This document shows, piece after piece, positions 20,459 to 24,204 of a DNA stretch of 64,000 nucleotides. Every line of letters begins with the position of its first letter. The first letter of the stretch is position 1. This DNA comes from Dehalococcoidia bacterium (lineage in GTDB: Bacteria > Chloroflexota > Dehalococcoidia > Bin125), in assembly GCA_034421135.1 (NCBI GenBank), contig DAOUKQ010000010.1, positions 21,659-85,658 of the forward strand. Reading direction: 5' to 3'. The translations under genes were made by a program, and so were the position numbers. The notes under the pieces are model-generated. The model did not search any database. It saw only the letters and a list, made by a program, of their open reading frames with translations, and had not been told where the DNA came from.

Positions 20459-21321
20459 ACACTCACAGCCAACCCCCGACCGTACTGATCACCGGCGCGA
20501 ACAGCGGCATCGGCAAGGCCGGAGCGACCGAGCTGGCGCGTCGCGGCTGGCACGTCTTCGCCGCCGCCCGCTCGCTCGAACGCGGCCAGGCCGCCGTCGC
20601 GCAGATTCAGAAGGACAGCGGCTCAATCGCCGTCGAACTGCTGGAGATGGACCTTGCCTCGTTCGATTCCGTCCGGCGAGCTGTAGACGAACTGCTTGAG
20701 CGCACCGAACGGCTCGATGTCCTGGTCAACAACGCCGGTCTCACGCTCGACCAACGACAGCTCACCGGCGACGGCCTCGAAACGATGATGCAGACGAATC
20801 ACTTCTCCCCGGTCCTGCTCACCTCGCTGCTGCTGCCCACGCTGCTCGAGTCGGACGATGCGCGCGTCGTCAACGTCAGCTCGCGCGTCTACGAGCGTGT
20901 GGATGCGATGCCGCTGGACGATCTCAACTTCGAGCACTATTGGGGCGGTATCCGACCGTACTGCGCGACCAAGCTGGCCAACATTCTGTTCACGAACGAG
21001 CTGCATCGTCACACACACGAGCTTGGCCTGGCCGCCTTTTCCGTCCATCCAGGCGTCGTGGCAACCAACTTCCTGCAGAACTTTCCCGCTCCGCTGCGAG
21101 CGGTCCTCCGCGTTGCCCGTCCGCTGTTGCGCAGTCCCGAGCAGGGCGCGGCGCCAGTCGTGGAGCTTGCGACGGACCCAGGCCGGCGCGCCGACGCTGG
21201 AGCCTACTTCGACCGGCACACGTTGACCCAGCAGCAACCACAAGCCAGCGATCGGCAAACCGCCGAGCGCCTGTGGCAACTGACCAACGAGATCACAGGT
21301 GCGGAGTGGCCAGGAACATGA
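20455..21321 (+). CDS. SDR family oxidoreductase
   Basis: TGANSGIGKA Rossmann motif, NNAG, and the Y-x3-K catalytic pair (YCATK). ATGA overlap with hpnA. Confidence 0.8.
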   Translation: MNTHSQPPTVLITGANSGIGKAGATELARRGWHVFAAARSLERGQAAVAQIQKDSGSIAVELLEMDLASFDSVRRAVDELLERTERLDVLVNNAGLTLDQRQLTGDGLETMMQTNHFSPVLLTSLLLPTLLESDDARVVNVSSRVYERVDAMPLDDLNFEHYWGGIRPYCATKLANILFTNELHRHTHELGLAAFSVHPGVVATNFLQNFPAPLRAVLRVARPLLRSPEQGAAPVVELATDPGRRADAGAYFDRHTLTQQQPQASDRQTAERLWQLTNEITGAEWPGT

Positions 21322-21815
21322 GCATCAACAATCGCGACGACCTGATCGCCGAGCTTGAGCAAGACAGTGAGGAATTCCAGGCCGCAGTCGCGCAATTGCC
21401 CGAGGAGGCCTTCGAGCGCGGCGTCTACGAACAGGGCTGGAACGCACGGCAGCTGCTCGCCCACATCGCCGCGATTGAGTGGACCTATCCCCGCCTGATC
21501 GAACGGGCCGAGCAGCGTGCCGCAGGAGACGATGTCCCCCAGGGAGGCGGCGCCGGCTTCGATATGGACGCCTACAACGCCAAGCAAGTCGAACGCCGAG
21601 ACGATCAGCCGGTCGAACAACTCCTCACCGAGTTCCGCCGAAACCGAGCCGAGACGATCGACGCGATCCGAGCGGCCGACGAAGAACTGCTCAAGCAGCC
21701 GACCAGGTCAGCGGGAGGGGTCGAGGGAACCCTGCTCGACGTGCTTGAGGGCGTCGCCGTGGGTCATGTGAGGGAGCACGTCAACGATCTGCTCAGAGGG
21801 GCCCGTTCGGGTTGA
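21318..21815 (+). CDS. DinB/YfiT-like four-helix-bundle (DinB_2-like) protein
   Basis: Small helical protein with the LLAHIAAIEW and HVREH motifs typical of the DinB_2 family. ATGA overlap with the SDR stop. Confidence 0.45.
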   Translation: MSINNRDDLIAELEQDSEEFQAAVAQLPEEAFERGVYEQGWNARQLLAHIAAIEWTYPRLIERAEQRAAGDDVPQGGGAGFDMDAYNAKQVERRDDQPVEQLLTEFRRNRAETIDAIRAADEELLKQPTRSAGGVEGTLLDVLEGVAVGHVREHVNDLLRGARSG

Positions 21816-21852
21816 ACGCTTAACATGTCTCAAAGGACCATTCCAGTAAGTG

Positions 21853-22596
21853 TCAGTCGCTGGGGTCGATGTAGAACCGGAATGAAACGTCCGTACTCTC
21901 GTAAACTTGATTCTCCGAAACTTGCGTGTACATAATCCAGATCGCCCAGATGTCGATCCACTGCTGATCCTGATGGCTTAAGCGAACGATGGGCAGACCA
22001 GCCTCAAGCAACTCTTCCGGGTAGATTGATGCCTCATGGACCTGTGGAGCTTGAATCAGAACACGTTCAAGATGCATTGTCAAATCGCTTATCTCTTCTC
22101 GCTTCCTGGACGGACAGTTGGCCAGTGACTGTTCCAACTGTAGTGTCGCGTGGTCAAGAGACTCACGAGCCTCTTGAGCCTCAAAAGCACTTCGATTCTC
22201 CAGGGTCATCGCGTGAAACGAGGCAAGAACTCCTTCTGTGGCGGCCGCCGCCTCGGCTCTCCGGAAGGCCTCGAGGACGGTCTTGGCTGGCTTCCGTCCG
22301 TAATGTTCCAGCCATAGCTGCGGGTCGATTGGTCCCAAGTCACTGGTTGGTCCCGTAACTATCTCGTCCGCTCCTAGAAGAAGCAACGTCCCAGCACTCT
22401 TCGCTTCCAATGGAACGATCACAGTCAGGTGGGTACACCTCGTTCGCATTTGCCGGACTAAGCGAATTGCTGCTTCACCCTCACCGCCCAAGGTGTTCAG
22501 GAACAGGTGCAGAGATTCACAGTCCCCGATCTCAAGGAGAATGTCTTCAATATTGACGGCGCTCGGGGTGAGGATCTCGGCATCAACGACAATCAC
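21853..22596 (-). CDS. SDH-family ClpP-fold serine proteinase (serine dehydrogenase proteinase, PF01972-like), in a low-GC island
   Basis: LNTLGGEGEAAIRLVRQMR...LEAKSAGTLLLLGADEIVTGPTSDLGPIDPQ matches the SDH/ClpP-fold proteinase core with the Ser nucleophile. GTG start, and an in-frame TAG lies just upstream. Local GC is ~48-52%. Confidence 0.6.
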   Translation of the reverse strand: MIVVDAEILTPSAVNIEDILLEIGDCESLHLFLNTLGGEGEAAIRLVRQMRTRCTHLTVIVPLEAKSAGTLLLLGADEIVTGPTSDLGPIDPQLWLEHYGRKPAKTVLEAFRRAEAAAATEGVLASFHAMTLENRSAFEAQEARESLDHATLQLEQSLANCPSRKREEISDLTMHLERVLIQAPQVHEASIYPEELLEAGLPIVRLSHQDQQWIDIWAIWIMYTQVSENQVYESTDVSFRFYIDPSD

Positions 22597-22615
22597 ACGA
22601 CAGTCGTATCGAGAC

Positions 22616-22882
22616 TCATACTCCTCTAGCAGGCTGCTGACGGCTGTCTAGCGCCTCGTCCTCCTGTTGGTCACCACCCTCAGAATCGAACTCTGAGGCC
22701 TCATCCGTACAGTCCGGCTCGCTCACGCAGCCTTCCGTTTCTTTTCCTTTAGCCGTCGCTCGTTTTCCAGTCGGCTCTTTCGCCACTGGGGCGCTATCTG
22801 CTTTCTCCAATAGGAGTCGCTCAAACTCGGCGCTCGCGCCGGCGCCCTTCTCGTTCCCGTGGGTTGACTTGCCATCGCACAC
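22616..22882 (-). CDS. hypothetical small acidic protein (D/E-rich), upstream partner of the SDH proteinase
   Basis: 88-aa ORF in the same low-GC island. It ends 19 nt before the proteinase start on the same strand. No recognised family. Confidence 0.35.
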   Translation of the reverse strand: MCDGKSTHGNEKGAGASAEFERLLLEKADSAPVAKEPTGKRATAKGKETEGCVSEPDCTDEASEFDSEGGDQQEDEALDSRQQPARGV

Positions 22883-22925
22883 CTTCTCTGCGTCGACAGT
22901 ATCCGGAAATAGTCATCCCCGCCAG

Positions 22926-24107
22926 CTACTGACGCGGAAGCTGCAGGCCTCGAGTCGCGATGATGTTTCGCTGGATCTCCGACGTGCCCGCCGCGATCGT
23001 GCTGGGGACCGTGCTCATGTAGGCGCGGCCAATGCGGGCGGCGAGCGGGGCGTCGGGGTCGTCGGGGTCGATCCGCTGCGAGTGCAGGCCCATCATGTTG
23101 ACGCCGAAGTGGGACACCCGCTGGCCGAGCTCGGAACCGAACATTTTCGACATCGACGCCTCGTGGTTGGGAACCAGATCCTGCGACTGCATCCAGACCA
23201 CGCGGTAGGAGATCAGCCGGGAAATCTCCGACTCGATCATCAGGTTGGCGAGTCCATTGCGGACACCCGGGTCGTCGATCAGCTTGGCTCCGCCGCGACG
23301 GCCGGGGCGCTCGGTCGCATACTCGGACATCAGCTCGATGCTCTTGCGCGAGGTCGCCGACCAGGCCACGCCCGAACGCTCGAAGTCGAGCAGCGTCGCC
23401 GCGACGTACCAGCCGCGGTTGTACTCGCCCATCATGTTCGAGGCGGGCACGCGCACGTCGGTGAAGTAGACCTCGTTGAAGCCGTGCTCGCCGAGCATGT
23501 TGATCAGCGGACGCACCTCAATGCCCGGAGAGTTCATGTCGAGCAGGAAGTAGGAGATGCCGCGGTGCTTGGGCGCTTCGGGATCGGTGCGCGTGAGCAC
23601 GTGGATCCAGTCGGCGTGGTGCGCGCCCGAGGTCCAGATCTTCTGCCCGTTGATTACGAAGTCGTCGCCGTCGCGCACGGCGCGGGTCTGCAGACCCGCC
23701 AGGTCCGAGCCGTTGCCCGGCTCCGAAAAGCCCTGCGCCCAGTAGGACTCGGCGTTGGCGATGCGGGGCAGGTGCTCCTGGCGCTGCGCCTCGGTGCCGT
23801 GCAGCATCAAGCAGGGGCCGACCATCGAGATGCCCTGGCCGCCCGAGCCGGGCGCGCCGCGGTAGGCGGCTTCCTCGCGGTAGATCATCTGCTGGATGTG
23901 GCTCGCGCCGCGGCCGCCGTATTCCTCCGGCCAAGCCATGGTTAGCCAGCCCTTGGACGCCGCCCGCTTCTCGAACGCGCGCTCGGCCTCGAAGTGCGCG
24001 TCGTCGCCGGGTTCGTTTGCCCCGGAGGCGGGCACCCAGTTGTTATCGATGAAGTCCACCACTTCCGTGCGGAAGTTCTCGTCGGATTCGGTGAATTGAT
24101 AGTCCAT
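22926..24107 (-). CDS. acyl-CoA dehydrogenase family protein
   Basis: ACAD N-terminal, middle and C-terminal domains (YWAQGFSEPGNGSD, GQKIWTSGA, IAAGTSEIQRNII). The start is placed at MDYQFTE, which is preceded by GAGGAG. Confidence 0.85.
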   Translation of the reverse strand: MDYQFTESDENFRTEVVDFIDNNWVPASGANEPGDDAHFEAERAFEKRAASKGWLTMAWPEEYGGRGASHIQQMIYREEAAYRGAPGSGGQGISMVGPCLMLHGTEAQRQEHLPRIANAESYWAQGFSEPGNGSDLAGLQTRAVRDGDDFVINGQKIWTSGAHHADWIHVLTRTDPEAPKHRGISYFLLDMNSPGIEVRPLINMLGEHGFNEVYFTDVRVPASNMMGEYNRGWYVAATLLDFERSGVAWSATSRKSIELMSEYATERPGRRGGAKLIDDPGVRNGLANLMIESEISRLISYRVVWMQSQDLVPNHEASMSKMFGSELGQRVSHFGVNMMGLHSQRIDPDDPDAPLAARIGRAYMSTVPSTIAAGTSEIQRNIIATRGLQLPRQ

Positions 24108-24204
24108 TGTCGGCTCCTCGGCGTGATGCACTCGTCAGCGACTTGCTCGCAGGCGCACAAAGTATAGACAATCGCCTGCGAACGGCCCGATACGCTGATC
24201 CCAC

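Follow-up and report, generated by a model that had tools for sequence, protein, structure and literature searches.

The low-GC block analysed here occupies positions 21816-22925 of a 64,000-nucleotide stretch of contig DAOUKQ010000010.1 from a Dehalococcoidia bacterium (the whole stretch is called the window below, and all coordinates are positions in this 64-kb sequence). In an initial annotation, made before any database search, the block was taken for an insert of foreign composition carrying the gene for a ClpP-fold serine protease and that for a small acidic partner. The block is the entire space between the stop codons of two convergent genes, which were named there as a DinB-like gene and an acyl-CoA dehydrogenase gene and were both confirmed by Pfam; the protease and DinB stops are only 37 nt apart. 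As summarized in Table 1, the block is a cassette of two genes, one for a small basic protein and the other for a protease, of which the latter is frameshifted in this copy.

Table 1. Positions of the cassette, its genes and signals, and the two flanking genes in the window
Feature	Position	Strand	Basis and remarks
Whole cassette	21816-22925		everything between the flanking stop codons; lowest GC of the window
DinB_2/MDMPI-type flanking gene	21318-21815	+	Pfam and synteny; conserved core gene; stop codon 21813-21815
Acyl-CoA dehydrogenase flanking gene	22926-24131	-	Acyl-CoA_dh N, M and C Pfam domains; conserved core gene; stop codon 22926-22928
SDH-type ClpP-fold serine protease gene	21853-22726	-	native start GTG 22726; 290 aa in intact relatives; frameshifted here
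Protease open reading frame as first read, 247 aa	21853-22596	-	motif quoted in the initial annotation and PF01972 match
Frameshift lesion	22630-22632	-	1-nt insertion and substitution relative to L001, from the difference list of the DNA alignment
D/E-rich open reading frame, 88 aa	22616-22882	-	open frame, not a gene; 19 nt upstream of the 247-aa open reading frame
Predicted nucleophile Ser codon, S110 in AKSAGT	22396-22398	-	invariant in 68 homologs
Predicted general-base Lys codon, K148	22282-22284	-	at least 90% conserved in 68 homologs
Small basic gene, 50 aa, isoelectric point 11.7	22723-22875	-	MASQPTGTRRAPARAPSLSDSYWRKQIAPQWRKSRLENERRLKEKKRKAA; substitution ratios by frame and homologous upstream open reading frames
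Putative expression signals	22882-22901	-	-10-like TACTGT 22896-22901; Shine-Dalgarno GAGAAGG 22882-22888

With a GC content of 55.0%, compared with 64.9% over the window as a whole, the block is the minimum among 1258 sliding 1110-nt windows of the 64 kb (z = -4.8), and in one 300-nt window the value falls to 49.3%. The GC content at third codon positions (GC3) of the coding sequence within the block is 0.59, against 0.76-0.90 in five neighbouring genes. The contrast first given, 48-52% against 68%, was overstated, but the drop itself is real and far beyond chance, and the block stayed distinct from its flanks after the windowed calculation that had been proposed as a check. Together with presence in some relatives and absence from others (see below), the low windowed GC and the low GC3 agree well with the claim of foreign composition, and the combination of atypical composition with a presence/absence pattern in close relatives is that of a genomic island. 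As was noted at first reading, neither integrase, tRNA nor flanking repeat accompanies the block: a tRNA scan gave no tRNA in the 64-kb window, an Rfam scan of both the cassette and the full 64 kb matched no family, and a search for terminal direct or inverted repeats and att-like sites at the cassette gave nothing meaningful. None of the marks of an integrative island or integron cassette (integrase, tRNA target, direct repeats, attC-like element) was thus found, and the ends of the cassette differ between alleles.

The protease gene and its small upstream partner

The initial annotation read the protease from a GTG following an in-frame TAG, and placed next to it the 88-aa acidic open reading frame (ORF) as a second gene. 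Both the 247-aa ORF and the TAG exist, the latter in frame 17 codons 5' of GTG 22596, but the native start is GTG 22726. The closest database protein to the window protease is P0001 from a Logan contig (290 aa, about 99% identical), which carries the N-terminus MSEPDCTDEASEFDSEGGDQEEDEALDSRQQRLEEYESRYDCRVIVVD; its residues 1-31 correspond to the end of the 88-aa ORF, and the remainder lies in the frame of the 247-aa ORF. In the DNA alignment the window reads CAGCAG-CCTG-CTAGAG where the intact relative L001 reads CAGCAG-CGT-CTAGAG, and after this lesion the N-terminal protease fragment terminates at TGA 22616-22618. As judged from these alignments, the 247-aa and 88-aa ORFs are not two genes but a single protease gene that a frameshift has broken in two, and the "acidic" element is the disordered N-terminal tail of the protease itself (isoelectric point 4.1). 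The 88 codons are made up of 52 codons of the small basic gene read out of frame, 31 codons of the protease N-terminus and 5 codons after the frameshift. The acidic partner gene therefore had to be given up, in view of P0001, of the indel in the DNA alignment, and of the ratio of nonsynonymous to synonymous substitution (dN/dS) by frame, which exceeds 1.6 in the upstream part of this ORF. GTG 22596 was rejected as the native start because it is without a ribosome-binding site and homologs begin 43 codons earlier, and a programmed frameshift was rejected because neither slippery nor stop-codon context is present and all other alleles are single-frame.

A product started at GTG 22596 is without residues 1-43. 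The intact protein, as modelled by AlphaFold2 (AF2), has a long helix at residues 16-40 that is placed with confidence and includes the conserved R29, I33 and Y36. Because the insertion removes this conserved N-terminal helix from any product, the window copy of the protease is most likely inactive and a recent pseudogene, next to a small gene that is still intact. JGI metagenome scans for the frameshift allele and for close relatives matched nothing. As a practical lesson, an apparent two-gene module of a protease plus an acidic partner can result from a frameshift and an overlapping reading frame together.

An accessory pair is indeed encoded in the block, but the partner of the protease is the 50-aa basic protein in another frame, not the acidic ORF. 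The small gene sits in the third frame of the 200 nt that separate the dehydrogenase stop from the protease start, and its TGA overlaps the protease GTG (GTGA); a 4-nt overlap of this kind, GTGA or ATGA, joins the two genes in most related cassettes. Between the window and L022, dN/dS was 0.06 in the small-gene frame against 1.6 and 4.6 in the other two frames, that of the 88-aa ORF included, and between L038 and L040 it was 0.07 against 3.1-4.5; by this measure of codon substitution the small basic gene is under purifying selection. A comparison of the L014 and L024 small ORFs was out of register and is not counted here. A homologous small ORF precedes the protease in almost every cassette, as well as in distant hosts and phage contigs, and a profile built from the small proteins matches 62 called, unnamed proteins of 50-108 aa that are without a Pfam domain. 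Searches of Pfam, PADLOC, NCBIfam and PHROGs with the small ORFs gave nothing usable, the only PADLOC matches for 15 small proteins being two stray ones (E = 0.012-0.045). The AF2 model of the small protein is disordered at the N-terminus and has one long helix, spanning residues 20-49 (predicted local distance difference test, pLDDT, about 84 in the helix). The distances among small proteins follow those among proteases (Spearman 0.78; Mantel r = 0.85, p = 1e-4), and therefore the small gene and the protease are inherited together and diverge together. No natural fusion of the small protein to the protease was found, and the long protease N-termini are acidic low-complexity tails.

The Shine-Dalgarno element GAGAAGG lies, as read from the sequence, 6 nt before the small-gene ATG at 22875. 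TACAGT/TACGGT and GGAGG elements are present at the equivalent position of other alleles. The leaders of the window, L014, L024, L027 and L022 (in the last four, about 30-55 nt past the dehydrogenase stop) are otherwise unalignable, but all have a short TAC(A/T)GT element and, after it, a GGAG-type ribosome-binding site immediately ahead of the small gene. The TAC(A/T)GT element may thus be the -10 element of a promoter belonging to the cassette; a scan for sigma-70 promoters and terminators was uninformative, with no consensus promoter at 22882-22901.

The assignment of the larger product to the SDH-type ClpP-fold serine proteases was borne out by both the family search and the predicted fold. 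In the Pfam search recommended for the proteinase ORF, the 247-aa ORF matched PF01972 (SDH_protease) with 43.3 bits against a cut-off of 31.3 (E = 3e-11), and PF01972 was present in all 120 homologs listed. The alignment covers only profile positions 93-180 of 286, that is, the catalytic core, and the score for the NCBIfam equivalog NF047768 (Clp_like_SDH), 53.3 bits, is below the curated cut-off of 250; the cassette protease therefore belongs to a divergent subfamily. Scores for ClpP (PF00574; 15.5 bits, cut-off 20.2) and for NfeD1b_N (PF25145; 23.1, cut-off 40) were also below threshold. At E <= 1e-30 the subfamily numbers 255 clusters, and the superfamily to which it belongs numbers about 4,500 at E <= 1e-10. 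Modelled by AF2 (pLDDT 93.8), the intact protease has its best structural matches in ClpP, 1510-N and SppA, and with a profile of 68 homologs the best sequence match among solved structures was PH1510 1510-N of Pyrococcus (E = 9e-7), a stomatin-specific protease with a Ser97/Lys138 dyad (PMC3795559). In the profile alignment S110 is aligned to the serine of the 1510-N SAGT motif, and K148 coincides with the catalytic Lys of 1510-N only by extrapolation over 6 residues beyond the end of the alignment. Taking alignment and model together, the features of clan SK Ser-Lys proteases, namely a ClpP/crotonase fold, an xSAGT serine and a downstream lysine, are predicted to be all in place. Pairs of protease alleles gave dN/dS of 0.05-0.09, and the intact copies are therefore functional proteins. 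Literature searches on PF01972, on SDH proteinase and on ClpP-like defence gave nothing relevant and essentially no functional literature.

A variable site among related Dehalococcoidia

For comparison of the neighbourhood across relatives, 61 loci were retrieved via the flanking dehydrogenase, all from metagenome-assembled genomes of Dehalococcoidia or Chloroflexota, and many of the bin names suggest sponge samples. At 46 of the 61 loci the dehydrogenase is 88-95% identical and the gene order is conserved. Counted over GTDB species representatives with conserved flanks, the site between the two core genes was empty in 17 species (7-8 bp, or about 77-175 bp with only a terminator hairpin), carried the protease pair in 16, always in the same orientation and directly after the dehydrogenase, carried a questin-oxidase-like gene instead in 4, a pair of small ORFs including one DUF2335 membrane protein in 1, and decayed stubs in 3. 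Further genes are also present at 6 of the 16 protease-bearing sites. The comparison proposed in the initial annotation, which took in about 45 related species of sponge-type Dehalococcoidia, thus identified the pair as a present/absent element.

The divergence of the protease is uncorrelated with that of the flanks (Spearman -0.05 to 0.08), against 0.78-0.83 between the flanking genes themselves. For L027, L028 and L029, the flanking proteins are 97-99% identical and the proteases only 48-52%, and their DNA, about 98% identical outside the cassette, is about 38% identical within it, the change coming precisely at the dehydrogenase stop and reverting at the DinB stop. The opposite relation holds for the window and L001: the cassettes differ at about 17 of 1110 positions (98.5% identical), against flanks of about 85% identity, which differ at about every sixth base beyond the nearest 8 nt of DinB and the nearest 20 nt of the dehydrogenase. 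These discordant identities of cassette and flanks indicate that the cassette has been exchanged horizontally as a sharp-edged unit. The constant orientation and position are as expected if an old insertion had later undergone allele replacement by way of the flanks, and a site-specific mechanism for the edges is possible. Decay of the cassette was found repeatedly: the window copy and L025 are frameshifted, L024 has lost the start codon, L043 and L100 retain the small gene and a 5' protease stub, and L018 retains a 3' stub.

Other contents of the site were also recorded. The empty sites of about 77 bp (L064, L012, L032-L034, L021) have a common hairpin, AAGAAGCGGCCTC...GAGGCCGCTTCTT, just after the dehydrogenase stop, which resembles a bidirectional terminator for convergent genes; it is absent from the protease cassettes, and a similar one is present in the questin-oxidase cassettes. 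The questin-oxidase-like gene (345 aa, PF14027) occupies the hotspot in L009, L015, L016 and L017 at about 9195-10370, and a decayed remnant of it lies at 3084-3972 of L036. In L038-L040, both this gene and the protease pair are present, with an addiction-module antidote gene (PF21716) between them. The small-ORF pair of L023 (9207-10512) consists of a 109-aa ORF and the 148-aa DUF2335 membrane protein, and in L101 (7191-8078) an IS1595 transposase is inserted beside the protease pair. In sample ERZ25070917 (L002-L005), an identical 304-aa protease, P0004, is encoded at the same locus of four large contigs; at 6.29 Mb, one of the four has roughly double the length of related complete genomes (2.4-3.6 Mb), and the set may represent co-existing strains or a duplicated assembly.

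The second-lowest GC region of the window, with about 56-57% GC, is a gene for a 237-aa DUF3800 protein (PF12686, E = 9e-10) at 16120-16833 on the forward strand, its neighbours being a radical-SAM gene on one side and, on the other, a 257-aa gene whose family is unconfirmed and whose L003 ortholog gave a weak Glyoxalase_3 match. The DUF3800 gene recurs in L004, a related contig, and is missing from L002, L003 and L005; it is therefore also a presence/absence cassette.

Phage carriage and candidate function of the pair

The pair is not confined to this site. Seven IMG/VR contigs carry near full-length relatives of the protease, and in all four readable phage contigs (L074-L076, L079) a small ORF lies upstream of it. 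In L076 the pair is located between a DNA polymerase/primase gene and the terminase, and in L074 it adjoins an integrase; both positions are typical of phage accessory genes. Among other hosts, the pair adjoins PIN/MazE and NYN genes in L068 and integrase fragments together with an ISL3 transposase in L069 (Nocardia), and lies between housekeeping genes in L071 and L099. On an unrelated circular contig of 4.65 Mb (L100; 1-2808 and 5001-5296), the small gene is followed by a protease stub of 41 codons, about 2.2 kb from a gene whose 938-aa product matches Piwi and HATPase_c_4 weakly and which may be an Argonaute-type defence gene. Searches of phage and plasmid collections with the protease protein gave only distant matches to the catalytic core, and gp31 of Gordonia phage BeeGee is a distant relative without a recognisable small partner.

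The best overall explanation, to which we assign a probability of about 0.6, is that the block is a mobile two-gene cassette, decayed in the window copy, for which a conflict module is the likeliest function. The cassette would be self-contained, with its own promoter and ribosome-binding region, the 50-aa basic helix protein and the translationally coupled 290-aa protease, for the latter of which a Ser110/Lys148 dyad is predicted and the N-terminal tail is acidic and disordered. Alleles of the pair that differ greatly are swapped in as whole units between the convergent core genes, and copies decay and are in time deleted. A conflict module of this kind could be of the defence, superinfection-exclusion or toxin-antitoxin type: the co-translated basic helix would bind and restrain or direct the acidic-tailed protease, and proteolysis would be set free if the small protein were lost or titrated away. 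The structural and evolutionary part of this description is held with high confidence. The conflict role of the pair, which we infer from its context and evolutionary behaviour, is proposed tentatively, at somewhat less than even odds. The contexts that point to it are the phage carriage, the neighbouring PIN/MazE and NYN genes, integrase, insertion sequence and Piwi-type gene, and the antidote gene at the hotspot. We also offer, with more doubt than belief, the wider possibility that the small helix and the protease form an undescribed family of two-gene conflict systems, spread by temperate phages and with alleles exchanged whole at chromosomal hotspots; the protease would then act as the effector, and the co-translated helix as its cognate inhibitor or as a trigger sensor.

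Several observations weigh against a mobile conflict module. Several copies stand alone among housekeeping genes, and neither recombinase, att site nor repeat accounting for the sharp edges was found. PADLOC-DB 2.0, the search of which had been recommended for both ORFs, gave, for the protease and the small ORF of the window alike, not a single family at E <= 1, and no system model was matched; a role in defence or as a toxin-antitoxin pair is therefore one that we infer. None of the papers searched connects PF01972 proteases with toxin-antitoxin systems or defence. For the small protein, neither a Pfam family nor a recognisable DNA-binding or antitoxin fold was found, the AF2 model being a single helix of moderate confidence, and the protease is not of a known toxin family. 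In addition, no positive selection was detected in either gene, both being under plain purifying selection.

The small protein might instead be a dedicated substrate or pro-peptide of the protease, with a role in accessory physiology such as peptide maturation or regulated turnover and none in conflict, as is the case for stomatin and the neighbouring NfeD/1510-N protease. This we consider unlikely. It agrees with the tight coupling and co-divergence of the two genes, and with 1510-N, the nearest sequence match of solved structure, being a Ser-Lys protease that cleaves its operon partner; moreover, many small-protein alleles end in an extended hydrophobic, Pro-containing RRLIVPFRxTIP-like motif that resembles a ligand of the protease cleft. 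The window-type small proteins, however, are without this motif, the cassette has neither membrane segments nor a stomatin-like partner, and a purely physiological role leaves unexplained the presence/absence pattern, the replacement of whole alleles, the frequent decay and the accessory carriage by phages.

The decay of the window copy could itself be questioned, if the extra base had arisen in sequencing or assembly and the organism itself had an unbroken gene, in which case the window would hold a working pair. The length differs by only a single base, the cassette is otherwise 98.5% identical to an intact copy, and the catalytic residues are kept. Against this, the lesion lies outside any homopolymer and is accompanied by an adjacent substitution (CGT to CCTG), and the independent decay of the same gene in L025, L024, L043, L100 and L018 indicates that pseudogenisation is common at the locus; an error is thus considered quite improbable.

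Least tenable of all is a set of decayed phage morphogenesis genes, with the protease as a prohead (head-maturation) protease left by a degraded prophage: the pair does occur in phage contigs and weak profile matches were found (NF045542, E = 0.002; phrog_1684, phrog_53 and phrog_94, E = 3e-4 to 0.02), but the top PHROG match is phrog_11747, a family of unknown function (E = 8e-24), the cassette always consists of two genes with no other phage gene, purifying selection maintains it across many species, and L076 carries, besides the pair in an accessory position, a separate and strongly scoring head-maturation protease within a structural module with portal and capsid genes, from which we conclude that the protease of the pair is not the head protease.

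The mobile two-gene cassette with a candidate conflict function accordingly adds a candidate to the protease-based conflict systems. A protease subfamily with an unannotated small partner, swapped in as a cassette at a hotspot and carried by phages as accessory genes, provides a testable handle on the role of the pair.

Comparison with known systems

The cassette protease shares with the SDH family (PF01972/NF047768) the ClpP-like fold and the core motifs xxSAGT and GPxDPQ, and its subfamily adds an N-terminal helix of its own, a C-terminal helical domain and the small upstream partner that is unannotated in databases. With ClpP the identity is 13-18%; the cassette protease differs in having an extra C-terminal domain of 120 residues and no linked AAA+ partner at the cassette, and in place of the Ser-His-Asp triad of ClpP, the position of the ClpP His falls within the GPIDPQ motif, which is without His. 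In contrast to PH1510 1510-N (NfeD/STOPP) and SppA, the cassette is without membrane segments, OB-fold C-domain and stomatin, and the partner of the protease is a 50-aa basic helix. To our knowledge, no system combining a ClpP-fold protease effector with a single-helix partner has been described, and none was found in the literature search. In organization and behaviour, the pair resembles the type II toxin-antitoxin modules and the single-operon phage-defence "morons". The layout is that of a small, co-directional two-gene operon with overlapping stop and start codons (GTGA/ATGA), inherited as a unit (r = 0.85), and the patchy distribution, lower GC, prophage carriage, location at hotspots with toxin-antitoxin parts and frequent decay are likewise in good agreement with those of such modules.

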